Shown: positions 179 through 56,084, numbered from the stretch's first letter. The stretch: 64,000 bases of DNA from an uncultured Alphaproteobacteria bacterium (GCA_934271715.1 CAKQRZ010000001.1:18819-82818); one strand, 5' to 3'. The notes: generated from the sequence alone by a model not told the origin. Made by a program: numbers and translations.

Positions 179-778
179 ATGAATACGGCAAATGAAAATG
201 GTCGCAGTATGATAGAAATGCTGGGCGTTCTGGCAATTATCGGCGTGCTGAGCGTCGGCGGTTTCAGCATGGTTAATAAAATGCAGACTTCTTATGAAAT
301 CAATCAGGTTTTAGACGCCGCCGGCGAGCTGGCAACCCGCACCCGCAATGTGATGCGCAACTATGATTTGGATGATGACAACAGCTCCAAAAACACTTCT
401 ATGAATGAATATCTGCTAAAAGCCAAAGCGGTGCCGGATGTATTTCTAAATTCGGGCGAATTTGAAGTCGGCGATGTAACCTATAACGTGCAGTATTTGG
501 GCGACAGCGTTACCTTTGTGGTGCAGGTGCAGAATCTGACCGAAGAAATGTGCATGCAAATGGTAACAACCAACTGGGGCGGACCAGGCACCAGCGGATT
601 TTTAGGCATGTCGGTTGACGATAGCGCAAATTCGGTTAATGAGGCTATAAAAAACAAAAGTTCGGGTTCTGCCACCGTTGCTCTTATCGGCAGCGCAGAC
701 CATCCGGCGCCTATGGGCATCGGTTCGGCAGCCACGGCTTGCGGCGATGGAAAAACTGTTAACCTGTCATTTAGATAA
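179..778 (+). CDS. Type IV pilin / pseudopilin-like protein with a canonical short leader (MNTANENG|RSMIEML)
   Basis: RBS aggag lies 7 nt upstream of the ATG. The N-terminus has a prepilin cleavage/methylation motif: Gly at -1, Glu at +5, then a hydrophobic helix LGVLAIIGVLSVGG that is shared with seven other genes in the window. Confidence 0.8.
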   Translation: MNTANENGRSMIEMLGVLAIIGVLSVGGFSMVNKMQTSYEINQVLDAAGELATRTRNVMRNYDLDDDNSSKNTSMNEYLLKAKAVPDVFLNSGEFEVGDVTYNVQYLGDSVTFVVQVQNLTEEMCMQMVTTNWGGPGTSGFLGMSVDDSANSVNEAIKNKSSGSATVALIGSADHPAPMGIGSAATACGDGKTVNLSFR

Positions 779-2426: not shown

Positions 2427-2846
2427 CTATAGTGTATAAAATTTTTTTTCGGCAGGAGAAAATGTTTTTGAAGAACAGATTGAATATTTTACTTTTGTCT
2501 GAATAGCTTCAGGCAGAGTGCCAATTATTTTAAATTTTCCATTATTATACAACTCGTTAATTTGTTGCTTTTCAATTTTTTGCATACCGCTTTTACCGCA
2601 ATGAATGCAGCAATTTTTAGTTAATTCTTCAGGCCAATCTTTTGTTGATAACTCTACAACTGAGGCTGCATCATATCTTGCGCGCAGTTTTACTTTTTCT
2701 ACTTTTGAAGTAATGTATAAATATTCCATTGTTTCGGCGTTTACCATTATAATTAAGCGATGCTCTTTATCGCTGCCTATGGGGAAGAGCGCCTTGTAAA
2801 CTTTCCATCTGTCCAATGGAATCATCTTAAATGGCAAATCAATCAA
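2427..2846 (-). CDS. Hypothetical protein. It is the downstream partner of a Panacea-domain gene, overlapping it by 8 nt, and is a candidate toxin.
   Basis: 139-aa ORF that overlaps 2839..3441 by 8 nt in the same orientation. I recognise no family. Confidence 0.4.
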   Translation of the reverse strand: MIDLPFKMIPLDRWKVYKALFPIGSDKEHRLIIMVNAETMEYLYITSKVEKVKLRARYDAASVVELSTKDWPEELTKNCCIHCGKSGMQKIEKQQINELYNNGKFKIIGTLPEAIQTKVKYSICSSKTFSPAEKKFYTL

Positions 2847-3441
2847 TTTTATCTCTTAACGCATTTAAAAAATCTTCGTCCATGGTAAATACATCGTCAT
2901 GCAAGCCTTTTGTTTTAGATTTTTCTAAAGTATCAGGGTTTAGTAAAAAGTCTTTTTCATCCATTAAAAAACGATTTCCATCAACACCCAATTTTTTCTC
3001 AAATTTTTTCCATTCTGGGTAATCATGTGAAATATCACTCAAATCAAATTGGCAGAACTTTCCAAAATTTGAAATAGAAAAATCCAAAGCTTCTTTAAAA
3101 CTTTCTGAAAGTTCATCATCACTTTGTGGTTTAATATAAACAGAATATTCATCAAGACTTTCAACGTCTTTTAATAAATTTGCATCCGAAACTGCTGCAC
3201 ACTCAGGCAATTTATTATTCATAATGTCTTTAGCAGCAGAGGCAACAGGTCCGTTTTTCATTGCGTAATAAGAATCATCAGAAGCTAAGCATCCATAATG
3301 CCGCATATGATAACGATCTGCAAAGAATAAAATTTTTAAAAAATACATAACAGTTTGCTTGCTGTTGTTTGTAGCAGGAGCATGGTTTTGAATATAAAAA
3401 AGCGCTTGCAAAATTTTGCGCATAGAAATTGTATAAGACAT
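2839..3441 (-). CDS. Panacea-domain (DUF4065, SocA-like) antitoxin-like protein
   Basis: The N-terminus KILQALFYIQNHAPATNNSKQTVMYFLKILFFADRYHMRHYGCLASDDSYYAMKNGPVASAAKDIM resembles the DUF4065/Panacea signature (KLQKLLYYAQ...GPV). The C-terminus is acidic. Confidence 0.5.
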   Translation of the reverse strand: MSYTISMRKILQALFYIQNHAPATNNSKQTVMYFLKILFFADRYHMRHYGCLASDDSYYAMKNGPVASAAKDIMNNKLPECAAVSDANLLKDVESLDEYSVYIKPQSDDELSESFKEALDFSISNFGKFCQFDLSDISHDYPEWKKFEKKLGVDGNRFLMDEKDFLLNPDTLEKSKTKGLHDDVFTMDEDFLNALRDKID

Positions 3442-3522: not shown

Positions 3523-4308
3523 TTATTCCATTTCTACAGTAACTGAGCAGCTTTCGGTTGCGCCTGTGCATTTTTTGCAAACTTCATTGATTTGCTGAGG
3601 GGTAATGCTTGTTAAACACTGTTTATTAGAATCCTTGCAATATTTGTCGCCATACCAATAATTTGCGGAGTCATTATTACCTTTGCCGGAGCGCCATACA
3701 CCGGTAAATCTGATAAAGCTGTGCAATGGCGTAAAAACATTAGCCATGATTTCTTCGCAGAATTTTGAAGAAAATGCCGGAGTTGTGGCAGCTCCGTCTG
3801 CGTCATAGTTTGCACCGCCTATTTCTATGCTGAATACAACTCTGTTCCAGCGGGAAAATAAAGCGCTGTTGTTGCCGTAAGCATCTAAAAAAGATGTGTT
3901 GTGATATGCGGCGGCGTTTTGTTCTATAGGCCAATTATCAGGGACTAAGCCTAAGGCTTGTATGGTATCAGCTATGCCGTATACATCGCCTCCGGAATTT
4001 AGTTTTTTAAAGTCTGAAAGATGTTCTACTAACCCCTGCACAAGCTGGTTATATTCTCCGACTGCCTTGGTTAGCTTAAATTTTTCCATGGCTTTGGAAT
4101 AACCTGCGATTCCGCCGACTGATAATACGCCGATAATCGCCAGAACGCCGAGCATTTCTATCATACTCCGCCCGGATTGAGAATAAGCACTTACTCTGCG
4201 TCCCCGGCACCAGTCATTCTTGGGTTTATCCCAAGAATCTTCTCTCAACCAACACTTATGCAATAATAAGGCTAATTTATTGACTAGGTTAGGGACTCGC
4301 TGCAACAA
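3523..4308 (-). CDS. Type IV pilin-like protein with an A-module 5' region. The pilin frame is open upstream to 4506, and the ATG at 4515-4517 is 2 nt out of frame.
   Basis: Mature N-terminus ...SQSG|RSMIEMLGVLAIIGVLSVGGIAGYSKAMEKFK. The C-terminal Cys-rich tail is CKKCTGATESCSVTVEME. The annotated start at 4308 is a TTG artefact of the ORF track. Confidence 0.75.
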   Translation of the reverse strand: MLQRVPNLVNKLALLLHKCWLREDSWDKPKNDWCRGRRVSAYSQSGRSMIEMLGVLAIIGVLSVGGIAGYSKAMEKFKLTKAVGEYNQLVQGLVEHLSDFKKLNSGGDVYGIADTIQALGLVPDNWPIEQNAAAYHNTSFLDAYGNNSALFSRWNRVVFSIEIGGANYDADGAATTPAFSSKFCEEIMANVFTPLHSFIRFTGVWRSGKGNNDSANYWYGDKYCKDSNKQCLTSITPQQINEVCKKCTGATESCSVTVEME

Positions 4309-4480
4309 GATTCTAGGTACAAGACCTAGAATGACTGGTGCTTGAGGCGCTAGCTTAGTGCCGTCTGTTATTTTAGTTTTTACTGTATTATTTCCGAAAG
4401 TGTTATTTTTTCTACCAAACCCTGCAAAAATGTGCTGAACAGCAGAAAAAGTGCCTTTAATCAGATGTTTAGGGTTTGCA

Positions 4481-4494
4481 GAGAGAGAGAGAGA
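4481..4494. repeat. (GA)7/(CT)7 dinucleotide tract between the A-module ATG and the pilin reading frame
   Basis: Direct reading: gca gagagagagagaga cc. The ATG frame reads MKNKLFKGLSLSLQTLNI* and the pilin frame is shifted by +2. Confidence 0.9.
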
Positions 4495-4553
4495 CCTTTG
4501 AATAGCTTATTTTTCATATTTCTTTCCTCTTAAATTATGTTGTTTACACTCCA

Positions 4554-4584
4554 ATTCTATAACAGGCACGCTCAATATGTCAAT
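4554..4584 (-). promoter_or_regulatory. Sigma70-like promoter of A-module (TTGACA-N18-TAGAAT)
   Basis: On the minus strand: TTGACAtattgagcgtgcctgttaTAGAAT, then about 35 nt, the RBS aagaggaaag and the ATG at 4517. The promoter is conserved in module copies at 26.6 kb, 39.1 kb and 55.07 kb. Confidence 0.55.
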
Positions 4585-8201: not shown

Positions 8202-8365
8202 TTTAGCTTTTCCGCCCTTTCATTTAGTTGAGTTGTATATATTACCATACCATGGTTACCATGCAGTGGCTTTTTCCATTAAGGCATTTTTTATAAGCTT
8301 CATCAATTTCCGTCAATGTCATATTTATAAAATATGCAAAATCAAAGCATAGGAAAAGCCGGAAA

Positions 8366-8541
8366 TGTGTAAAAAAAACGACCGTTTAAAAGGGACAGTT
8401 TTTAGGCTGTTTTTAGTAATGTATCACGGTTTGCTGCAAAATGCAATAACATAATAATTTTGCGTTATTTTTTTCATAATTTTGCAACATTTCAGCAGCT
8501 TGTTTTGAGTGTGTAAAAATAACGGTCGTTTTTTTTACACA
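8366..8541 (+). repeat. B-module element bounded by 21-bp perfect inverted repeats (tgtgtaaaaaaaacgaccgtt ... aacggtcgttttttttacaca), copy 1
   Basis: Inverted repeats at 8366-8386 and 8521-8541. It is followed by taataggaggaataagATG and the conserved 18 codons. Similar copies lie at 26687-26862 and 55125-55300; the inverted repeats are identical in all three, while the internal segment diverges. Confidence 0.8.
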
Positions 8542-8557
8542 TAATAGGAGGAATAAG

Positions 8558-10195
8558 ATGTTGAAGAGTATGAATTTTTTAAGAGGAAAGAGCAGGGAAA
8601 GAGTAAGTGGAGGCGGCACTTCCGTTTGCAGCGTCATTCTTCGCCGGTACTCCCAGCTGGAAGTACCATGGCGGAGAATCCATAACGTCATTGCGCATGC
8701 AATGTCAGTATGCGTTGCCGTTGGCAACAAAGTCATGGATACTCGTCTGCCACAGCCTGCGGGGTGTGGCGACAAGTATGACGTTTCGGGTCGGTGCCGG
8801 GGACGAGGGGTTAGTGCATTTAGCACCTTTACTATTAAAGCAATGTCAATATTAGCATTTCTTTGCTTATTCGCAACCGCGGCGGAGGCGAAGATTTGCT
8901 TTTTGCCGGACGGCAGCTGCGGCACTAGTAAAACAACCGGATTTAAGCAGAATCCAAACGGAAGCGGATGTATGTATAAATCGGAAGCTGAAGCCCGAAA
9001 CGGCTTAGGCGCCTGCGAAACCACATATAAGCAAAACATGTGCTATTATCGGCGCTGCAAGACTGAAGACAATAATATATTTGCAGACGAGGCAAGCTGC
9101 AAAAAGAAAGCCAAAGCAGATAATTTAATCTGCGTAAGCTGCGGCGGCTGCTATAAAGTTACGCCGAAAACATGCCCGAGTGGGTACACGGCAGGCTTAA
9201 CCGCCTGCGCAGAAAAAGCAGGCTATACGGCAAGTTATTCAAGCAACGGCTATGTAGGATATAGCGTCTGCGGCAAGTGCAAATATACCATAAAATCATG
9301 TGAAAGCGGCTATACTGTGGGCTTGGCCAGCTGTCCGGAAAAACAAGGTTATACTTCTAACTATTCCAGAAACGGAGTTTCCGGCGAGCAGGTCTGCGGC
9401 AAGTGCGACTACACGGCAAAGAGCTGTGCCGGAGGTTATACAGCGGGTCTGACAAGCTGCAGCGAGCGCCAAGGCTACACAGCAAGTTTAGTCAGCAATG
9501 GCTATGCCGGGGAGTTGGCTTGCGGAAAATGCAGTTATACGGCAAAAAGCTGTGCCGGAGGTTATACAGCAGGTCTGACAAGCTGCAGCGAACGGCGCGG
9601 CTATAATGCAAGCTATGCCAGCAACGGGTATGCCGGTGAGAAAATTTGCGGAAAATGCGACTATACGGCAAGAACTTGCCCAGATGGATATTCTACAAGA
9701 TATAGCAGCGTCAGCGCCTGCGGAAAAACAGGAAGTAACGGCTGGAATTATTATACTAATGGCTATTCAGGGGAAGCTGTGTGCGGGCAATGTAAAAGTA
9801 AAGCCTGTCCTAATGGGTATACTTGTACGTATTCTAGTAATATCAAGGCTCCTTGTAATAAAAGTATGGGATGTCCAGGCGATAGTGGGTATTATATTTA
9901 TGGTGGTATATTGGAACTAGGCTGGAGTAATGGATGTTTTGAGCGAGGGTATTATGTATATGTTATCTCTAATCGTTGCGGAGACGGGGTATGTGTCAGC
10001 AAATATGCAGCACGCACATGTCCTAGTGGTACAATGTTAAGAGATAGTGTAGATAATATTTATATATATTGCCAAAATAAAAATGCTACATCTTTTTGGG
10101 ATAAATATAATTGGTCGGCAAGGGCTGCAAAAGATGCAAACGGAGATACAGTTTGTTCAGGTTCAGAAATATGTATGGAATGCTATAAAAAATAA
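8558..10195 (+). CDS. Cys-rich tandem-repeat secreted protein with a B-module N-terminal extension. The signal-peptide-like MSILAFLCLFATAAEA starts at 8822.
   Basis: The ATG at 8558 (RBS aggagg) reads the conserved MLKSMNFLRGKSRERVSGGG and runs in frame, with no stop, into a signal peptide and five roughly 42-aa repeats of the form K.C..GYTAGLTSC.E..GYTAS..SNGYAGE..CGKC.YTA. At DNA level the repeats have a 126-bp period (9416-9541 and 9542-9667 are near-identical). Confidence 0.6.
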   Translation: MLKSMNFLRGKSRERVSGGGTSVCSVILRRYSQLEVPWRRIHNVIAHAMSVCVAVGNKVMDTRLPQPAGCGDKYDVSGRCRGRGVSAFSTFTIKAMSILAFLCLFATAAEAKICFLPDGSCGTSKTTGFKQNPNGSGCMYKSEAEARNGLGACETTYKQNMCYYRRCKTEDNNIFADEASCKKKAKADNLICVSCGGCYKVTPKTCPSGYTAGLTACAEKAGYTASYSSNGYVGYSVCGKCKYTIKSCESGYTVGLASCPEKQGYTSNYSRNGVSGEQVCGKCDYTAKSCAGGYTAGLTSCSERQGYTASLVSNGYAGELACGKCSYTAKSCAGGYTAGLTSCSERRGYNASYASNGYAGEKICGKCDYTARTCPDGYSTRYSSVSACGKTGSNGWNYYTNGYSGEAVCGQCKSKACPNGYTCTYSSNIKAPCNKSMGCPGDSGYYIYGGILELGWSNGCFERGYYVYVISNRCGDGVCVSKYAARTCPSGTMLRDSVDNIYIYCQNKNATSFWDKYNWSARAAKDANGDTVCSGSEICMECYKK

Positions 10196-25610: not shown

Positions 25611-26339
25611 TTAAAATGTCAATACAACGGCACAGGCATCATCTTTAGCACATCCGGAACAATATTTGTTTATATCAGATAAAGATAATTGATTAAAACA
25701 TTTTTTATCGGCACCGTTGCAATAACTATCCCCATAAAAAGCGACAGCTATAGGAAATATCAAAACATATTTTAAGGATGAGTGTAAAGGAGTTGCTATA
25801 TTTTGCACAAACTTTTCACATAAGCTATGAGAAAAATTTGCAGATACAGATTTTCCATCCTCATTTGTTACCCAGCCGCCTAGGTACATATCAAATACTA
25901 AGTCATTGCTGCGAAGGTAAATATTGAAATAATTGCCTAAATTGTCGTGTAAATATGGCCATTCAGGCGGAAGCAGATTTATATTTCTAAAAAATTCATT
26001 AAAATGTGTGCCATTTTTTTGTTTTTTTATGTATTGCAGGTGTTCTGTTATGCCAAAAAGTATATGAGAATAACCATCAATAGCTTTATTGATTTTGTAT
26101 TGCTCCATAGCTTTGGAATATCCGGCAATCCCGCCCACGCTCAACACGCCGATAATGGCCAGCACGCCAAGCATTTCTATCATACTGCGGCCGGATTGAG
26201 AAAAAGTACCATACCTGCGTCCCCAGCACCCATCATTCTTTGGTTTATCCCAAGAATCTTGTGTGAACCAGCTTTTATTTAATAATAAGGCTAATTTGTT
26301 GACTAGGTTAGAGACTCGTTGCCACAAGATTCTAGGCAC
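25611..26339 (-). CDS. Type IV pilin-like protein with an A-module 5' region. The frame is open upstream to about 26576, and the ATG at 26585-26587 is out of frame.
   Basis: ...YGTFSQSG|RSMIEMLGVLAIIGVLSVGGIAGYSKAMEQYK. The C-terminal tail is CSGCAKDDACAVVLTF. Confidence 0.75.
   Translation of the reverse strand: MPRILWQRVSNLVNKLALLLNKSWFTQDSWDKPKNDGCWGRRYGTFSQSGRSMIEMLGVLAIIGVLSVGGIAGYSKAMEQYKINKAIDGYSHILFGITEHLQYIKKQKNGTHFNEFFRNINLLPPEWPYLHDNLGNYFNIYLRSNDLVFDMYLGGWVTNEDGKSVSANFSHSLCEKFVQNIATPLHSSLKYVLIFPIAVAFYGDSYCNGADKKCFNQLSLSDINKYCSGCAKDDACAVVLTF
26164..26291. repeat. 128-bp inverted repeat, left arm. It is 127/128 identical to 27023-27150 in inverse orientation.
   Basis: The reverse complement of 26164-26291 equals 27023-27150 except for one C/T difference. 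The arm covers the pilin leader/N-terminus coding region of both divergent genes. Confidence 0.9.
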
Positions 26340-26550
26340 AAGGCCTAGAATGACAGGTACTAGAGGCGCAGACTTAGTGTTGGTTAATAGATTGCTTCGC
26401 TTTGCTCGCAGTGACGGCAGAGCAAGAGGCGAGCCTGTTAGTTTTGTTCTTAATGCGTTATTACCGAAAGTATCATTTTTTCTGCCAAATCCTGTAAAAA
26501 CGTGCTGAACGGCAGAAAAAGCGCCTTTAATCAGATGTTCAGGATTTGCA

Positions 26551-26564
26551 GAGAGAGAGAGAGA
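26551..26564. repeat. (GA)7/(CT)7 tract of the A-module
   Basis: Direct reading. The ATG frame reads MKNKQSKGLSLSLQILNI*. Confidence 0.9.
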
Positions 26565-26624
26565 CCTTTGGATTGCTTATTTTTCATCTTTCTTTCCTCT
26601 ATATTTAAGTTATTTTATACCTTT

Positions 26625-26654
26625 ATTCTACAACAGCCTCACTCCATAAGTCAA
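26625..26654 (-). promoter_or_regulatory. Sigma70-like promoter of the A-module (TTGACT-N18-TAGAAT)
   Basis: Minus strand: TTGACTtatggagtgaggctgttgTAGAAT. Confidence 0.55.
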
Positions 26655-26686
26655 CCGTAAAATCAAAGCATTGGAAGAATCGGAAG

Positions 26687-26862
26687 TGTGTAAAAAAAAC
26701 GACCGTTTAAAATGGACAGTTTTTAGGCTGTTTTTAGTAATGTAGCAGAGGTTGTTAAAATTTGCAATAACTTTTTATATTTGCGATGTTTTTTGCGGTT
26801 TTATAAAAATTTACAGCGTCTTGTTTTGAGTGTGTAAAAATAACGGTCGTTTTTTTTACACA
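26687..26862 (+). repeat. B-module IR-bounded element, copy 2
   Basis: Inverted repeats at 26687-26707 and 26842-26862, followed by taataggaggaataagATG at 26879. Confidence 0.8.
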
Positions 26863-26878
26863 TAATAGGAGGAATAAG

Positions 26879-27760
26879 ATGTTTAAGAGTATAGAATTTT
26901 TAAGAGGAAAGAGCAGGGGGAGAGTAGGTGGATGCGGTGGACTCTCGCCTCTAGCACCAGTCATTCTAGGTCTTGTACATAGAATCCTATTGCAACAAAT
27001 CTCTAACCCAGTCAATAAATTTGCCTTATTATTAAATAAAAGCTGGTTCACACAAGATTCTTGGGATAAACCAAAGAATGATGGGTGTTGGGGACGCAGG
27101 TATGGTACTTTTTCTCAATCCGGCCGCAGTATGATAGAAATGCTTGGCGTATTAGCTATAGTAGCTGTTCTCTCAGTCGGCGGGATTGCTGGATATTCCA
27201 AAGCTATGGAAAAGTGGAAAGAAAATAAAGTCATCGGCGAATACAGTTACTTAATACAGGGAATTATAGAGCATTTGAGCGACTTTGAAAAACTGAAAGA
27301 CGAGGAAGTCCGCTATGATTTATTGCCGACCTTAGCGGCAATGAATTTGCTCCCCGGCAACTGGAAAAATACAGACGAATATGAAGGGCATAAAAATGTA
27401 TCAGATACCTTAGGCAATACTTTGTCTGTTTTCAGCCGCAGCGACAGAGTGGTTATGACTATATTGTTTGGCGCTAGTTCGGTTTCCGAAAGCGGAGATA
27501 CCGTTTCGCAAACTTTTTCCGGACAATTATGCAAAGCATTTTGGCAAAATATTTTAGTTCCCTTACATAATCAAATTTATTATGCAGGAGTTTATCGCAG
27601 TAAATATTATGAGCGTGCAAATTATTATTTTAATGATAAATATTGCGGCGGCAAAAATCAATGCTTCAGTGAAATCAAATTGAATGATATAGAAAGAATA
27701 TGCAGCGCCTGCGCTTCCGGGGAAGAATATTGCGTGCTTACTTGGGAGTTTGATTATTAG
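26879..27760 (+). CDS. Type IV pilin-like protein with a B-module N-terminal extension, in frame
   Basis: MFKSIEFLRGKSRGRVGG...(81 aa)...SQSG|RSMIEMLGVLAIVAVLSVGGIAGYSKAMEKWK. The C-terminal tail is CSACASGEEYCVLTWEFDY. Confidence 0.75.
   Translation: MFKSIEFLRGKSRGRVGGCGGLSPLAPVILGLVHRILLQQISNPVNKFALLLNKSWFTQDSWDKPKNDGCWGRRYGTFSQSGRSMIEMLGVLAIVAVLSVGGIAGYSKAMEKWKENKVIGEYSYLIQGIIEHLSDFEKLKDEEVRYDLLPTLAAMNLLPGNWKNTDEYEGHKNVSDTLGNTLSVFSRSDRVVMTILFGASSVSESGDTVSQTFSGQLCKAFWQNILVPLHNQIYYAGVYRSKYYERANYYFNDKYCGGKNQCFSEIKLNDIERICSACASGEEYCVLTWEFDY
27023..27150. repeat. 128-bp inverted repeat, right arm
   Basis: See 26164-26291. Confidence 0.9.
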
Positions 27761-36468: not shown

Positions 36469-37422
36469 ATGGCAACAGTAAATGATACAGAATTTTCGGA
36501 TATTTATATTATTCCGGATGGCACGGCCTACATTTGGGGGCGTCAGACACCAAGCGGATTGATTCAGGTTCAACCGGATGATTATGATGAATTTTTGCAA
36601 CAAGTTATGAATACATATGACGGTCATAATCCAAGTTATCAAGTAAAATTTAAAGGTTTGAACTACCGTGTTGAAAGAACCGTAACGCTGGAAGGACAGC
36701 AATACTGCGCCCGTAAAATGCCTCACTCTGTGCCGGATATTAACAAACTTGGTATAGAAGAACATTTGCTCAAATACTTAAAATCACTAAGCGGCGCTCC
36801 CGGACTTATTTTGCTTGCCGGTACAACCGGTTCCGGTAAAACCACCACTCTATCAGCTTTGCTGCGTGAATTTTTGATTCGCGACGGCGGCTATGCTTTT
36901 ACGCTGGAAGACCCGGTGGAAATGCCGCTGGACGGCACTTATCATACGGTAAACGGCGAGCTTGGCATTTGCAAACAGATGACGCCTCCGGGAGGTTCTT
37001 GGGAAGCCGGTCTGAAATCAATGCTGCGTTCTAAGCCGCGTTATGTATATCTGGGTGAGATTCGTGACCCTGAAATTGCCTCTGAAGCTTTGCGTGCAGC
37101 TATTTCAGGCCACCTTGTTATGTCCACAATTCACGCCAGCACCGTTACTGATGCTATTCAGTCTATTGTAAAATACGCCGCGGCAACCGGTATTTCCGAA
37201 GAAATGGCCTATGACTTGGTGGGCAACGGTATTTTGGCGGTGCTGCACCAAAGCTTGGTCGGCGTTCCTAAGCGCGCTAAAATTGAATATGTGTTTGCTA
37301 ATCCGGACGGCTCTAAAGGCGACCAAGTGCGCGGTATTATCAAAAGCGGCAAGATGAACTTGTCTACCACGATTGAAACTCAGCGCATTCGTTTGTCACG
37401 CGGCGTGCCGTTGTTTGAATAA
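36469..37422 (+). CDS. PilT/PilU-family secretion ATPase (type IV pilus retraction ATPase-like), short form
   Basis: Walker A GTTGSGKTTT, Asp box TLEDPVE, Walker B YVYLGEIRD and His box HLVMSTIHA. At 317 aa it is shorter than canonical PilT. Confidence 0.65.
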   Translation: MATVNDTEFSDIYIIPDGTAYIWGRQTPSGLIQVQPDDYDEFLQQVMNTYDGHNPSYQVKFKGLNYRVERTVTLEGQQYCARKMPHSVPDINKLGIEEHLLKYLKSLSGAPGLILLAGTTGSGKTTTLSALLREFLIRDGGYAFTLEDPVEMPLDGTYHTVNGELGICKQMTPPGGSWEAGLKSMLRSKPRYVYLGEIRDPEIASEALRAAISGHLVMSTIHASTVTDAIQSIVKYAAATGISEEMAYDLVGNGILAVLHQSLVGVPKRAKIEYVFANPDGSKGDQVRGIIKSGKMNLSTTIETQRIRLSRGVPLFE

Positions 37423-38209: not shown

Positions 38210-38890
38210 CTAAGGCCAGAGATGAATGGAATAGTGCGCCGCACCGCTGCTTTTAGACAATATGTGGCAGCGTTTTTGAATATCGCTCAGTTTGGCGTCG
38301 GCTAAATCTGTATAGTTAAATAGTATAGCATCATTCACCCCTTCTCCAAAATTTTGCCTAAAATTTGATTTCTTAATTTCCAGTGCTACCGGTTGGATTG
38401 CTAAGACTAAATTGCGGCAAAATTCTTCATTATCCTGCGGCAGATAGGCGTCTTTATTAGCCATAAAATATATTTCCATAACATAATATTTACAGTCTTT
38501 CATATTATATTTATGGATTTCTATATGGTTTCCGCTTTTATCATAAATGGCGTTATTTTCAAAAGTTGTTCCCTCCGGCAGATATCCAAGGTCATTAACT
38601 AAATATGTGATATTTTGAAAGTCTCCTAAATTGCTGCCGAGTTTGGGCTTGATTTCTATCATTGCATGAATAAGTTCTGTAATCATATTGCGCTGAATGT
38701 TTGATTTCCACATATTCATAGCTTTAGAATATCCGGCAATCCCTCCAACAGACAGAACAGCTATTATCGCCAATACACCCAGCATTTCTATCATACTTCT
38801 TCCAAAAAAATTTGCGCCTCTGCCGCCAGTCATCCTAGGCCGTGACGCACGGTCTGTGCCTAGGATCTTGTCGCACCAAGGGCGGTGCAA
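38210..38890 (-). CDS. Type IV pilin-like protein with an A-module 5' region. The frame is open upstream to about 39056, and there is an internal in-frame ATG (leader MTGGRGANFFG).
   Basis: ...RPRMTGGRGANFFG|RSMIEMLGVLAIIAVLSVGGIAGYSKAMNMWK. The C-terminus contains Cys. Confidence 0.75.
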   Translation of the reverse strand: MHRPWCDKILGTDRASRPRMTGGRGANFFGRSMIEMLGVLAIIAVLSVGGIAGYSKAMNMWKSNIQRNMITELIHAMIEIKPKLGSNLGDFQNITYLVNDLGYLPEGTTFENNAIYDKSGNHIEIHKYNMKDCKYYVMEIYFMANKDAYLPQDNEEFCRNLVLAIQPVALEIKKSNFRQNFGEGVNDAILFNYTDLADAKLSDIQKRCHILSKSSGAAHYSIHLWP

Positions 38891-39029
38891 ACCCTCTCCC
38901 TCAAGGGGCGAGGTTGTTAGTTTACTTCTTAATGCGTTATTACCGAAAGTGTTATTTTTTCTGCCAAACTCTGTAAAAACGTACTGAACGGCAGAAAAAG
39001 CGCCTTTAATCAGATGTTCAGGATTTGCA

Positions 39030-39045
39030 GAGAGAGAGATAGAGA
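39030..39045. repeat. Interrupted CT/GA tract of an A-module: (GA)5-TA-GAGA, 16 nt
   Basis: gca gagagagagatagaga cc. It is 2 nt longer than the other four copies and is still out of frame. Confidence 0.9.
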
Positions 39046-39105
39046 CCTTTGGATTGCTTATTTTTCATCTTTCTTTCCTCTTATTTTAAGTTATTTTACA
39101 TTTTT

Positions 39106-39135
39106 ATTCTATACCAGCCGCACTCCATAAGTCAA
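39106..39135 (-). promoter_or_regulatory. Sigma70-like promoter of an A-module (TTGACT-N16/18-TAGAAT)
   Basis: Minus strand: TTGACTtatggagtgcggctggtaTAGAAT. Confidence 0.5.
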
Positions 39136-45095: not shown

Positions 45096-45929
45096 TTAAA
45101 AAGTCATAACAATATGGCACCACGGAGATTTATCTGTACAAGATTTACACATCTCATCAATTTTATTTAAGGTAAGTTCGTTAAGACATTTATTTTCTCC
45201 GCCGCAATAATTGTCTCCATAATATGCGTAGTCCGAAGCCACCGTATGACGATAAAAACTGACATAATATAGGGCGCTATGCAAAGGTTTCATTACATTA
45301 TTGTATAGAGCTCGGCAATATTCAAGATTAGTTTTGTCCGGCAGAATTATACCCTTTTGTTGGTCAATAATACCTATTTCAAAAACCAAATGGCCGTTGC
45401 GAACAAAAGGCCAAACCCAATGATTTTGGGAATCAATAAGCGTAAGTCCCGAATTAGACCATGTTGTTGGAGTTAAATTTGCAGCAATGGCAAATTCAGT
45501 TAAATAGAGCTGAGAACCGTTTGAATTTAATTTTTCATAGTCTGGCAGATGCTCAATCAATCCGGTAATAAAATAAGTGTATTCTTCTATAATTTTATTG
45601 ACCTTAAATTTTTCCATTGCTTTGGAATATCCGGCGATGCCGCCGACTGATAGAACACCAATAATCGCCAGAACGCCCAGCATTTCAATCATTGACCGAC
45701 CGGCTGAAACCGCGTATAGCGGCGCATCTAAAGCAGTTTTACGCTGTCTCAAAAAATTCATGTACCTCCAATGTACACTAGGATTTTTTTCGCAGCTAGA
45801 AACCACTTTATCTACACCACTCTCCGCAGTTTCGAGGAGTTTTGAGGTGTATTGACGCACGACATCCAAACCCTTAAATGTGATGTTGTTTCTTTCGGCG
45901 TCATTGCGAGGAGTGTAACGACGAAGCAA
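45096..45929 (-). CDS. Type IV pilin-like protein with an A-module 5' region. The frame is open upstream to 46082, and the ATG at 46091-46093 is out of frame.
   Basis: ...YAVSAG|RSMIEMLGVLAIIGVLSVGGIAGYSKAMEKFK. An internal in-frame M would give a 21-aa leader. The C-terminal tail is CKSCTDKSPWCHIVMTF. Confidence 0.75.
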   Translation of the reverse strand: MLRRYTPRNDAERNNITFKGLDVVRQYTSKLLETAESGVDKVVSSCEKNPSVHWRYMNFLRQRKTALDAPLYAVSAGRSMIEMLGVLAIIGVLSVGGIAGYSKAMEKFKVNKIIEEYTYFITGLIEHLPDYEKLNSNGSQLYLTEFAIAANLTPTTWSNSGLTLIDSQNHWVWPFVRNGHLVFEIGIIDQQKGIILPDKTNLEYCRALYNNVMKPLHSALYYVSFYRHTVASDYAYYGDNYCGGENKCLNELTLNKIDEMCKSCTDKSPWCHIVMTF

Positions 45930-46056
45930 TCCAGAACCCTTTATAGAGTAGCTACTGAATGTGTTTTTTCCGAATGTGTGATTTTTTGCGCCGAACTCTG
46001 CAGAAACACGCTGAGCGGCGAAAAATGCGCCTTTAATCAGATGTTTAGGATTTGCA

Positions 46057-46070
46057 GAGAGAGAGAGAGA
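46057..46070. repeat. (GA)7/(CT)7 tract of an A-module
   Basis: Direct reading. The ATG frame reads MKNKLFKGLSLSLQILNI*. The pilin frame reads ...SLSLSANPKHLIKGAFFAAQRVSAEFG... Confidence 0.9.
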
Positions 46071-46251
46071 CCTTTGAATAGCTTATTTTTCATCTTTCTT
46101 TCCTCTTATTTTAAGTTAACTACGACATTTATTTTAACTAAATAAAACCGGAAAGTAAAGATAATTTTGGTATCGTCATGCGTTGTTTTAAGTGTCAGTA
46201 AAAACAGTAAAAGCCTGTCTTTTATAAGACAGGCTTTTAAAAAGGATTTGT

Positions 46252-54177: not shown

Positions 54178-54804
54178 TCATACATTATTATCAAAAAGGA
54201 TTTGAATTAAACAGTAATCGTCTTTGCAGATTTTACAAGCTTCGCTGACTTCCGGCAAATTATAATCTTCTCTTACGCATTCAGCAACAGCATAATCTGC
54301 CGGTCTGGCATTTCCGCAGATTCTATAATCCCAACTGCTGCATGTTCCGCTGCACAATACTATAGTCCAAATAATATCAGTATAAACCGGCAATAAATGG
54401 AATAATTCGCGGCAGTTATATTCGGCTATACTGTTTGGCAATATTTCAAATTGTAAATTTAAACGAGTGTAAATATCATAAGGTTTCATAGTAACAGATA
54501 CTCTGTTTCTAAACAAATCTCTGTTATCATCATCTAACAAGCCTTGAGGCACAATGCCGATTTCTTTTAAGGTGGGCAGAATGTCTTCACTGCGTTTTCC
54601 ATATTGTTTTTCTAATTTATATGTATCTTTGATGTTAAAAATCAGCTCTTCTACTTGCTGAATCCATTTATCTTGCTTCCACTTCTCCATAACCTTGGAA
54701 TAACCGGCGATTCCACCTACTGATAATATACCAACAATCGCCAGAACTCCGAGCATTTCAATCATGCTTCTCCCTAAGAAATTTGCGCTTCTAGCACTCG
54801 TCAT
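54178..54804 (-). CDS. Type IV pilin-like protein with an A-module 5' region. The frame is open upstream to about 55014, and an in-frame ATG gives the short leader MTSARSANFLG.
   Basis: MTSARSANFLG|RSMIEMLGVLAIVGILSVGGIAGYSKVMEKWK. The C-terminal tail is CKICKDDYCLIQILFDNNV. Confidence 0.75.
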   Translation of the reverse strand: MTSARSANFLGRSMIEMLGVLAIVGILSVGGIAGYSKVMEKWKQDKWIQQVEELIFNIKDTYKLEKQYGKRSEDILPTLKEIGIVPQGLLDDDNRDLFRNRVSVTMKPYDIYTRLNLQFEILPNSIAEYNCRELFHLLPVYTDIIWTIVLCSGTCSSWDYRICGNARPADYAVAECVREDYNLPEVSEACKICKDDYCLIQILFDNNV

Positions 54805-54988
54805 ACTAGGCCCTGTGCCTAGTATCTTGTGGCACCAAGGGCGGTGTAATCCATCGCCCCGTGAGGGAGAGGTTATTATTTTTGTTCTTAATGCGTTATT
54901 TCCGAAAGTATCATTTTTTCTGCCAAACCCTGCAAAAACGTGCTGAACAGCAGAAAAAGTGCCTTTAATCAGATGTTCAGGATTTGCA

Positions 54989-55002
54989 GAGAGAGAGAGA
55001 GA
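54989..55002. repeat. (GA)7/(CT)7 tract of an A-module
   Basis: Direct reading. Confidence 0.9.
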
Positions 55003-55062
55003 CCTTTGCTTAGCTTATTTTTCATCTTTCTTTCCTCTTATTTTAAGTTAATTTACATCTTT

Positions 55063-55092
55063 ATTCTACACCAGCCATACTCCATAAGTCAA
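55063..55092 (-). promoter_or_regulatory. Sigma70-like promoter of an A-module (TTGACT-N18-TAGAAT)
   Basis: Minus strand: TTGACTtatggagtatggctggtgTAGAAT. Confidence 0.55.
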
Positions 55093-55124
55093 CCGTAAAA
55101 TCAAAGCGTTGGAAGAGGCGGAAG

Positions 55125-55300
55125 TGTGTAAAAAAAACGACCGTTTAAAAGGGACAGTTTTTAGGCTGTTTTTAGTAATGTAACAGAGGTTGCTAAAATT
55201 TGCAATAACTTTTTATATTTGCGATGTTTTTTGCAGATTTGTGAGACTTTTCAGCGTCTTGTTTATAGTGTGTAAAAATAACGGTCGTTTTTTTTACACA
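55125..55300 (+). repeat. B-module IR-bounded element, copy 3
   Basis: Inverted repeats at 55125-55145 and 55280-55300. An internal putative promoter TTGCTA-N18-TATATT lies at 55209-55238. Confidence 0.8.
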
Positions 55301-55316
55301 TAATAGGAGGAATAAG

Positions 55317-56084
55317 ATGTTGAAGAGTATAGAATTTTTAAGAGGAAAGAGCAGGGGAAGAGTAGGTGGATTGCTTCGCTGCACTCGCAATGACGGTGCA
55401 GGTAACGGCGAGGGATTGCACCGCCCTGGGTGCGACAAGATCCTAGGCACAGACTGTGCGTCACGGCCTAGGATGACTGGTGGCAGAGGCGCAAATTACT
55501 TTGGCCGCAGTATGATAGAAATGCTGGGAGTTCTCGCAATTATCGGAGTGCTGAGTGTCGGCGGAATTGCCGGATATTCTAAAGCTATGATGATGTGGAA
55601 AGTTGATAAATGGAGTGCCGGGTTAATTCAAATGATGCAGGAAGCGCAAACTCTGTATTTGAATCAAAAATCATTCGGCGATACTGTGAAAATTATCACT
55701 CCTCAGCTGGTAGATACCGGAGTTATTCCGCAGGGAATGCTGGATGAAAATTACCGCGATATGTTCGGCAATCGGCTTACTGTTTTAACTCGTTATTGGG
55801 ATGTGTTTGGACTTCGCCTGAATGTTTATCATGAAATGCCTGCCGGTAAAGACGCGGTGGAATGCTGTAAAAAGCTATATGAGATGGGACAGCAGTTTCC
55901 CAGCAACTGGGTAGTAGTAACTGAAAATTTCGGCTATTCAGTCTGCGGCAGAGCGGCGCCGGATAGTTATGTGCAGGCGATGGGCTGTCAGCCTTATAGT
56001 TTAGCTAAGGTCGCAGAACTGTGCAAAAATTGCGAAACCAATAACTGCAATATAATATTTTTATTGGATAATACTAAATATTAA
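55317..56084 (+). CDS. Type IV pilin-like protein with a B-module N-terminal extension
   Basis: MLKSIEFLRGKSRGRVGG...RPRMTGGRGANYFG|RSMIEMLGVLAIIGVLSVGGIAGYSKAMMMWK. The C-terminal tail is CKNCETNNCNIIFLLDNTKY. Confidence 0.75.
   Translation: MLKSIEFLRGKSRGRVGGLLRCTRNDGAGNGEGLHRPGCDKILGTDCASRPRMTGGRGANYFGRSMIEMLGVLAIIGVLSVGGIAGYSKAMMMWKVDKWSAGLIQMMQEAQTLYLNQKSFGDTVKIITPQLVDTGVIPQGMLDENYRDMFGNRLTVLTRYWDVFGLRLNVYHEMPAGKDAVECCKKLYEMGQQFPSNWVVVTENFGYSVCGRAAPDSYVQAMGCQPYSLAKVAELCKNCETNNCNIIFLLDNTKY

Follow-up and report, generated by a model that had tools for sequence, protein, structure and literature searches.

The window analysed here, a stretch of 64,000 nucleotides from an uncultured Alphaproteobacteria bacterium (GCA_934271715.1, CAKQRZ010000001.1:18819-82818), contains five copies of a conserved block, the A cassette, in which a CT repeat stands between an ATG and a pilin reading frame with which that ATG is out of register. 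This raises the question of whether the repeat is a slipped-strand switch, as a preliminary description of the DNA proposed, or whether the pilins are translated by some other route or are silent. We examined the layout and frame relations of the five copies, compared them with related cassettes in public genomes and metagenomes, and weighed the alternatives against the same evidence.

All five copies lie on the minus strand, each ahead of a type IVb-like pilin gene; in this respect the preliminary description needs a correction of strand. Alignment of the five regions gives a single order: a promoter-like site, a 5' untranslated region of approximately 37 nt, the ribosome-binding site (RBS) AAGAGGAAAG, the ATG and the CT tract. 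The start reads ATG AAA AAT AAG NNN NNN AAA GGT, immediately followed by the tract, and downstream of the tract approximately 130 nt are conserved, succeeded by a variable spacer and then by the pilin start G↓RSMIEMLGVLAIIGVLSVGG (the arrow marks the predicted cleavage site). The ATGs begin at 4517, 26587, 39068, 46093 and 55025 (minus strand), each preceded by AAGAGGAAAG. A sigma-70-like promoter, TTGAC(A/T)-18-TAGAAT, matches the consensus at 10 to 11 of 12 positions in four copies and is weaker in the 46-kb copy; the promoter-to-ATG spacing of the 4.5-kb copy is the same as in the 26.5-, 39- and 55-kb copies. The segment AACATCTGATTAAAGG, in which the short frame read from the ATG stops, is identical across the five.

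In the 4.5-kb copy (minus strand, as are all coordinates in this paragraph), the promoter-like TTGACA-18-TAGAAT (11/12 consensus matches) occupies 4554-4583, the RBS AGAGGAAAG 4522-4530 and the ATG 4515-4517. The OFF-state frame, MKNKLFKGLSLSLQTLNI and a stop, runs over 4461-4517 and includes the (CT)7 tract at 4480-4493 (14 nt, an OFF length; 12 or 18 nt would be ON by frame). The pilin reading frame spans 3523-4506, with a stop-free leader of 111 codons (4174-4506), the G(-1) codon at 4171-4173, the mature type IVb-like pilin (RSMIEML...) at 3526-4170 and the stop at 3523-3525. The 26.5-kb copy has its promoter-like TTGACT-18-TAGAAT at 26625-26654, its OFF-state frame (MKNKQSKGLSLSLQILNI and a stop, from the ATG) at 26531-26587, (CT)7 at 26550-26563, and a pilin frame at 25611-26576 (128-codon open leader plus pilin; G codon 26190-26192). 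In the 55-kb copy the corresponding positions are 55063-55092 (TTGACT-18-TAGAAT), 54969-55025 (MKNKLSKGLSLSLQILNI and a stop, from the ATG), 54988-55001 for (CT)7, and 54178-55014 for the pilin frame (80-codon open leader plus pilin; G codon 54772-54774). The 46-kb copy has lost the canonical -35 region and retains a weaker promoter-like site, TTTACT-17-TAAAAT, at 46131-46159; its OFF-state frame (MKNKLFKGLSLSLQILNI and a stop, from the ATG) lies at 46037-46093, (CT)7 at 46056-46069 and the pilin frame at 45096-46082 (127-codon open leader plus pilin; G codon 45699-45701). The 39-kb copy, with TTGACT-18-TAGAAT at 39106-39135, carries an interrupted 16-nt tract, CTCTATCTCTCTCTCT, at 39029-39044, which leaves it OFF in the other wrong frame, and the gain of one CT unit would turn it ON; its OFF-state frame (MKNKQSKGLYLSLCKS and a stop, from the ATG) covers 39018-39068 and its pilin frame 38210-39064 (87-codon open leader plus pilin; G codon 38801-38803). 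The tract thus lies between the ATG and the pilin frame as had been described, as (CT)7 in four copies and in the interrupted 16-nt form in the fifth. Its position in the 4.5-kb copy falls within the interval originally given, and the other four had each been placed 1 nt too high. A 12-mer search of the 64 kb returned 15 overlapping matches against 0.05 expected, and no dinucleotide repeat of five or more units was found in the window besides the cassette tracts; because these tracts are its sole dinucleotide simple-sequence repeats (SSRs), a chance origin is disfavoured.

Read from the ATG, the frame is MKNK(L/Q)(F/S)KGLSLSLQ(T/I)LNI and a stop (18 codons) in four copies and ends after 16 codons in the 39-kb copy. 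The OFF state claimed for all five copies is borne out, and the claimed length of 18 codons applies to four of them. Relative to the ATG, the pilin frame is shifted by +2 in four copies and by +1 in the 39-kb copy; past a TAA/TGA that separates the ATG from the tract, it is free of stops as far as G↓RSMIEML. Stops are frequent in both remaining frames. The stop-free stretch measures 111, 128, 87, 127 and 80 codons in the 4.5-, 26.5-, 39-, 46- and 55-kb copies, respectively; the +2-shifted open frame into G↓RSMIEML had therefore been correctly recognized for four copies, and its length, put at about 135-150 codons, overestimated (80-128 codons measured). The tract starts 24 nt past the A of the ATG, and the repeat (uninterrupted in four copies) is thus within the 5' coding region. 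Because of this 24-nt separation, the pilin is in frame only when the tract length is divisible by three (6, 9 or 12 CT units). Of the ON lengths listed previously (12, 15 and 18 nt), 12 and 18 are arithmetically right and are matched by natural alleles, and 15 is unreachable by slippage of CT units. Each of the five window loci, all OFF, is one CT unit from ON. In every window copy both OFF frames end soon after the tract (7 or 8 units give a stop 2-6 codons past it); the early stop is retained in the (CT)8 frame because a G/A polymorphism in CCTRAAC yields either TGA or TAA.

The genes behind these starts encode type IVb-like pilins with a class III signal peptide. G↓RSMIEMLGVLAIIGVLSVGG is invariant in eight pilin genes of the window, which have glycine at -1, glutamate at +5 and a hydrophobic stretch of approximately 20 residues at the N-terminus. 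An alignment of the eight sequences shows a common N-terminus, G↓RSMIEMLGVLAI...LSVGG, variable heads and two invariant Cys columns (in the first sequence, C139 and C199), and the fold is that of a pilin, with a long N-terminal helix packed on a beta-sheet head. Profile scores are borderline (TIGR02532, 16.0 bits against a cut-off of 16.3; Pfam N_methyl, 15.9 against 21.2), and the PDB contains no sequence match for these pilins. Identity to the type IVb pilins CofA, TcpA and Salmonella Typhi PilS is only 13-14%, and the first mature residue here is Arg.

We then searched public contigs for the RBS-ATG and the conserved AACATCTGATTAAAGG, allowing any tract in between, which yielded 31 stretches from GTDB species genomes and 39 from metagenome contigs. 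Including those of the window, the resulting 78 cassettes comprise 58 with 14 nt, (CT)7; 16 with 16 nt, (CT)8; and 4 with 12 nt, (CT)6. When the (CT)9 alleles described below are added (78+ cassettes), tract length changes by whole CT units only (6, 7, 8 or 9). Genomes contain approximately 13-20 cassettes each. Among single assemblies, CAKQDU01 has 20 (one (CT)6, 18 (CT)7 and one (CT)8), ERZ1034855 has 15 (one (CT)6, 14 (CT)7 and no (CT)8), CAVKTH01 has 13 (no (CT)6, seven (CT)7, five (CT)8 and one unresolved) and SAMEA3663093 has nine (no (CT)6, three (CT)7 and six (CT)8), the unresolved count being zero in all but CAVKTH01. The unresolved cassette, L022, has a run of N at 1738-1756, exactly the tract position, and was set aside as uninformative; the run may reflect masking or the failure of an assembler at a heterogeneous tract. 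The frame offset between ATG and pilin tracks tract length in 45 of the 46 cassettes with an identifiable downstream pilin start.

Alleles in the ON frame occur naturally. Two (CT)6 cassettes, L032 and L056, are readable over their full length and give complete, uninterrupted open reading frames (ORFs) of 268 and 278 residues, which begin with MKNKLFKGLSLSANP..., include G↓RSMIEML and end at the stop of the pilin. Used as a protein query, the ON form of the leader retrieved predicted proteins starting with MKNKLFKGLSLSANP, which corresponds to (CT)6, and with MKNKLFKGLSLSLSANP, which corresponds to (CT)9. The (CT)9 alleles are those of L071, L072 and L073 and of predicted proteins P0001, P0016 and P0017; for two predicted proteins (CT)9 was confirmed at the DNA level. 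For P0010 (MKISYSKVSLSLSANP...), a protein from a more divergent relative, the protein sequence implies that the frame is reached through an A-run shorter by 1 nt combined with (CT)8. Loss of one or gain of two CT units had been predicted to fuse the ATG to the pilin, and the (CT)6 and (CT)9 alleles, which are in frame with the ATG, match that prediction. The preliminary description had also named related genomes as the place to look for differences in tract length; with 6, 7, 8 and 9 units found there, (CT)7 is not invariant.

Some cassettes have other contexts, as seen with L072 (1443-1842), L073 (40-381) and protein P0007. A cassettes also precede non-pilin genes; an in-frame (CT)9 cassette ends 20 nt before a gene for a 165-residue protein (N-terminal hydrophobic segment; present on eight contigs) that adjoins an autotransporter gene; and in one predicted protein the A leader is fused to the C-terminus of a thymidine-phosphorylase-like protein.

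The cleanest view of tract change comes from one orthologous locus in two samples, L038 (ERZ1034855) and L051 (SAMEA3663093), which carry (CT)7 and (CT)8, respectively, on near-identical flanks. Upstream, the two agree at all of 256 nt; downstream, identity is 99.3% over 400 nt (three substitutions in 650 nt overall), and their pilin genes match at 99.7% of 1,548 nt. Strict flank identity left two orthologous pairs, of which this one differs in its tract; differing pairs accepted under looser identity are mosaics with replaced leaders or promoters and were rejected as clean evidence. L071, from another Hadza sample, occupies the position of the 4.5-kb window copy (the same HAD-family and GlyRS neighbours and the same promoter) and has (CT)9; because the sequence downstream of the tract is replaced there, it is a mosaic and the comparison is unclean. 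Its in-frame (CT)9 cassette (1501-1815) leads into a degenerate, truncated pilin of 104 residues with E instead of G at -1. Across a MAFFT alignment of 72 cassettes from the RBS to +140, 20 deviate in length at the tract, and the sole indel elsewhere in these approximately 140 nt is a single 6-nt in-frame deletion. The tract is the only indel hotspot of the cassette.

If the ATG is the pilin start in ON alleles, then the whole stretch up to the cleavage site must be translated. Counted from the ATG, A-cassette leaders would be 66-230 residues long, unlike a short basic leader of about 6-30 residues, with spacers of 55-216 codons among 46 distinct leaders. Type IVb leaders typically have 15-30 residues, so those of the A cassette are far longer; to our knowledge, they are far beyond any prepilin leader known. 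In 45 of 46 leaders the pilin frame passes through the tract without a stop. A set of 46 distinct leaders with an open frame amounts to 4,877 codons, with 284 and 423 stops in the two other frames, and because this set was filtered for an open frame the figure of 45/46 is the unbiased measure of openness. The open leader frame is under selection. Variable sites in the conserved post-tract leader fall evenly on the three codon positions (17/18/20, no third-position excess), and for this reason we rejected a conserved protein-level role for the leader peptide; the even distribution indicates a read-through spacer that is selected only for frame and absence of stops. A riboswitch or other described RNA element in the leader is ruled out by Rfam, which in the whole window reports two tRNAs only and no known RNA family in the leaders.

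The variable spacers are made of palindromic, REP-like units (window 4187-4361 and 26226-26368; loci L001-L070), for example GTCATTCTAGG-loop-CCTAGAATC, GGATTGCTTCGC..GCTCGCAATGAC and GTCACTGCGAGCAAAGCGAAGCAATC. They are always inserted with the pilin frame kept open, and read as VILGLVPRI, GLLRVARND or SLRAKRSNL.

A second block, the B cassette, lends independent support to translation of these leaders. It occurs in the window at 8362-8560, 26683-26881 and 55121-55319 (plus strand), where perfect inverted repeats of 24-26 bp (AAGTGTGT-A8-CGACCGTT ... AACGGTCG-T8-ACACAC) flank a 134-bp segment with a promoter-like site; downstream follow a strong RBS, TAGGAGGAAT, and an ATG (MFKGIEFFKGKSRG... 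or MLKSIEFLRGKSRG...). This ATG is in frame with the pilins at 26879-27760 and 55317-56084, and in 14 of 14 readable pilin-linked copies an open frame of 30-81 codons leads from it into G↓RSMIEML. With the B ATG in frame through the leader in all 14, long translated leaders are normal for this pilin family, and only the A ATG is out of frame. Leaders of the B type and of genes with their own start have 29-32 residues in most copies. The B layout resembles an invertible promoter; the orientation of the inner segment is the same in all 15 copies, and we therefore do not take inversion as shown. The A/T runs of the cassette are 8 nt long in nearly all copies. One B cassette is fused in frame to a non-pilin ORF of 545 residues (8558-10195, plus strand), which has no Pfam or NCBIfam match and contains a 126-nt tandem repeat (2.2 copies) at 9395-9671.

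Taken together, these sequence comparisons make it probable that the A cassette is a slipped-strand CT switch that turns translation of pilin genes on and off. The contingency-switch reading of the preliminary description is supported, all that such a switch predicts for the sequence being borne out, by variation in whole units only, the 45/46 agreement between frame and tract length, the in-frame (CT)6 and (CT)9 alleles, the L038/L051 pair, the indel hotspot at the tract and the B-cassette leaders. In the mechanism that we propose, the A cassette would be a portable expression cassette consisting of a constitutive sigma-70-type promoter, a short 5' untranslated region, a strong RBS, the ATG, (CT)n and a leader portion of approximately 130 nt, which a variable stop-free spacer would connect with a type IVb-like pilin at its G↓RSMIEML cleavage site. 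CT units would be gained or lost by slipped-strand mispairing as the DNA is replicated. With 6 or 9 units the ATG would be in frame and yield a prepilin with a long cytoplasmic leader (at least 66 residues), itself the substrate of a prepilin peptidase; with 7 or 8 units translation would end 2-6 codons past the tract and no pilin would be made. ON alleles would presumably give rise to assembled pilin, and switching may be frequent and reversible within a population, its likely purpose being stochastic or antigenic variation across the approximately 20 pilin loci of each genome in the gut.

An alternative that we consider unlikely treats the 16-18 codons read from the ATG as a genuine regulatory upstream ORF (uORF). 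Pilin synthesis would begin at an internal start close to the cleavage site, or ribosomes would reinitiate on a CTG overlapping the stop of the uORF in ATCTGATT, and differences in CT number would be neutral or at most modulatory. The prevalence of (CT)7 (58 of 78 cassettes), the invariance of the stop region in the five window copies and the lack of amino-acid-level constraint on the leader are all consistent with it. So is an in-frame ATG at -10 (MTGGRGANFFG↓RS) or TTG at -12/-14 (LLRVARND..G↓RS) in several leader types, which could give a leader of conventional length regardless of the tract. However, these candidate starts have no good Shine-Dalgarno sequence, and several leaders (L038/L051, L030 and the 26.5-kb window copy) lack any in-frame start in the 19-57 codons next to the cleavage site. 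Were the leader untranslated, an open frame in 45 of 46 leaders, when the alternative frames contain hundreds of stops, would have no explanation; in B cassettes the ATG always reads in frame across the same spacers; and (CT)8 alleles end the uORF elsewhere, so that it is not conserved as a unit. Less probable again is that the A-module pilins are silent or decaying storage copies for recombination, like Neisseria pilS, inactivated by the frameshift. That all five window copies are OFF, that pilin bodies move between loci (L064 and L024, discussed below) and that the pilin at L071 is truncated would fit such a role, but a consensus promoter, RBS, ATG and one-frame stop-free leader would not be kept in silent copies, the inactivating change always consists of whole CT units at a single site, and in-frame alleles with complete ORFs exist.

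Least probable, by a little, is expression of the (CT)7 alleles as they stand, by way of a programmed frameshift of the ribosome or slippage of RNA polymerase at the CU repeat. The striking uniformity of (CT)7 among paralogous copies and the CUCUCU tract directly before the frame junction speak for it, yet (CT)7 would require a -1/+2 shift and (CT)8 a +1 shift, and both occur, even at one orthologous locus, whereas (CT)6 and (CT)9 need no shift at all. The leader has neither an X XXY YYZ slippery heptamer nor an Rfam frameshift element, so the tract does not have the make-up of a frameshift site, and we know transcriptional slippage from long homopolymers only, not from dinucleotide tracts. 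Against the slipped-strand switch itself stand the unconstrained amino-acid sequence of the leader, the internal ATG or TTG of some leaders, leader lengths beyond those known, and the prevalence of one OFF length: (CT)7 makes up 74% of cassettes, and ON alleles 4/78 (approximately 5%) against one-third expected under free drift, where tract states are assembly consensus only and one clean orthologous pair differs in length. Because (CT)7 dominates and ON alleles are rare, either most loci are held OFF by selection or bias, or the cassettes are homogenized by recombination.

Exchange between loci is suggested by a pilin variable region that is common to L064 and L024 (99.3% identical over 450 nt). 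In L064 (plus strand, pilin at approximately 11680) an A cassette precedes it; in L024, from another strain (minus strand, reverse-complement offset of the pilin start 3908), it occupies another place in the chromosome and is preceded by an RBS and ATG of its own and a 29-residue leader (MMNQNQFGRLCSQFAPDANELPADGVQYG↓RS). Since the same region sits at different sites behind different starts, pilin bodies appear to have been exchanged between loci. Within the window, a 285-nt inverted repeat (26084-26368 and 26946-27230, 86% complementary) covers the 5' ends and leaders of a divergent pilin pair, and its arms bracket a 577-nt block in which an A and a B cassette stand back to back; if the arms recombined, each of the two pilins would receive the cassette of the other.

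These features can be combined into a broader picture, which we offer tentatively and hold to be possible but somewhat short of an even chance: the CT switch would be one layer of a genome-wide combinatorial system of pilus variation, comprising some 20 or more type IVb-like pilins, A and B cassettes, body exchange and the longest leaders known. Every pilin would lie behind a portable cassette, either A (with its (CT)n switch) or B (with its inverton-like promoter), and leaders of 66-230 residues would have been built up from palindromic repeat units inserted in frame, which would be tolerated since cleavage removes the leader.

The switch itself is of a type already known. CT repeats in the 5' coding region mediate slipped-strand ON/OFF switching of oipA (hopH), sabA, sabB and hopZ in Helicobacter pylori (PMC10564699, PMC2715451). 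The A cassette is like these switches in its CT unit, in its position just after the start codon, where it encodes LSLSL, and in being a device shared by several paralogous surface-protein genes. It differs from them in that the H. pylori tracts lie in the Sec signal peptide of beta-barrel adhesins, whereas here the tract lies at the start of a very long class III prepilin leader; the proteins are non-homologous, the host is an alphaproteobacterium rather than an epsilonproteobacterium, and the promoter-ATG-tract-leader block is one conserved cassette repeated approximately 13-20 times per genome. The opa family of Neisseria has 11 phase-variable genes in a gonococcal strain (PMC11868660). Like opa, the present system is a multigene family with a pyrimidine repeat in the leader-coding region; unlike opa, it has a dimer rather than a pentamer as its unit, encodes pilins rather than outer-membrane adhesins, has approximately twice as many loci and shows no homology. 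In opa the repeat is (CTCTT)n in the signal-peptide-coding region, and the copies are constitutively transcribed, independently switched and mostly OFF.

Among type IV pili, those of Neisseria vary in expression or identity by localized hypermutation or recombination (PMC11868660). The exchange of pilin bodies hinted at here is like that of pilE/pilS, and in contrast to pilC, a homopolymer case in a tip or assembly protein, we find a dinucleotide repeat in the pilin structural genes. The tract of pilC, whose product is a tip or assembly protein, is poly-G; pilE/pilS variation proceeds by recombination, and that in Moraxella bovis by Piv inversion. We know of no other major-pilin structural genes that are switched by a coding dinucleotide repeat, and our literature searches found no account of this CT-switched pilin system, returning the H. 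pylori and Neisseria analogues only. With a mechanism of the oipA/sabA and opa type, what is unusual is the number of loci, approximately 13-20 per genome, and the very long prepilin leaders.

SSR phase variation has been described chiefly in a small number of cultured pathogens, such as Neisseria, Haemophilus, Helicobacter and Campylobacter. The present system provides a clear case at the sequence level in an uncultured human-gut commensal alphaproteobacterium, with approximately 13-20 pilin loci per genome that would be independently switchable, which would imply strong diversifying, immune or phage pressure on the surface pili of this lineage. The CT count at each locus is a ready marker of population heterogeneity in metagenomic reads. 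For annotation there is a warning, in that these pilin genes are prone to mis-calls or pseudogene labels, and the very long translated leaders bear on the range of substrates that prepilin peptidases accept.

The lineage consists of human-gut metagenome-assembled genomes labelled "uncultured Alphaproteobacteria", from Hadza samples and other cohorts; those with cassettes include CAKQDU01 and CAKQLF01 (both Hadza), CAAGHP01 and CAVKTH01 (a bin labelled Bacteroidaceae). The pilin genes of the window occur singly or as divergent pairs amid housekeeping genes (dnaK, dnaJ, polA, argS, glyS and a class A PBP gene). A PilT/GspE-family ATPase at 36469-37422 is the only pilus-machinery gene of the window, and no recombinase or prepilin peptidase was found among its scanned ORFs. 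One pilin paralogue (179-778, plus strand) has a conventional short leader, MNTANENG↓RSMIEML; its upstream sequence, of which the window includes 178 nt, contains neither an A nor a B cassette. The 4.5-kb pilin gene is immediately followed by a SocA/Panacea-domain antitoxin-like gene (2839-3441, minus strand; Pfam E-value 2e-19), the end of which is overlapped by a 139-residue ORF at 2427-2846.
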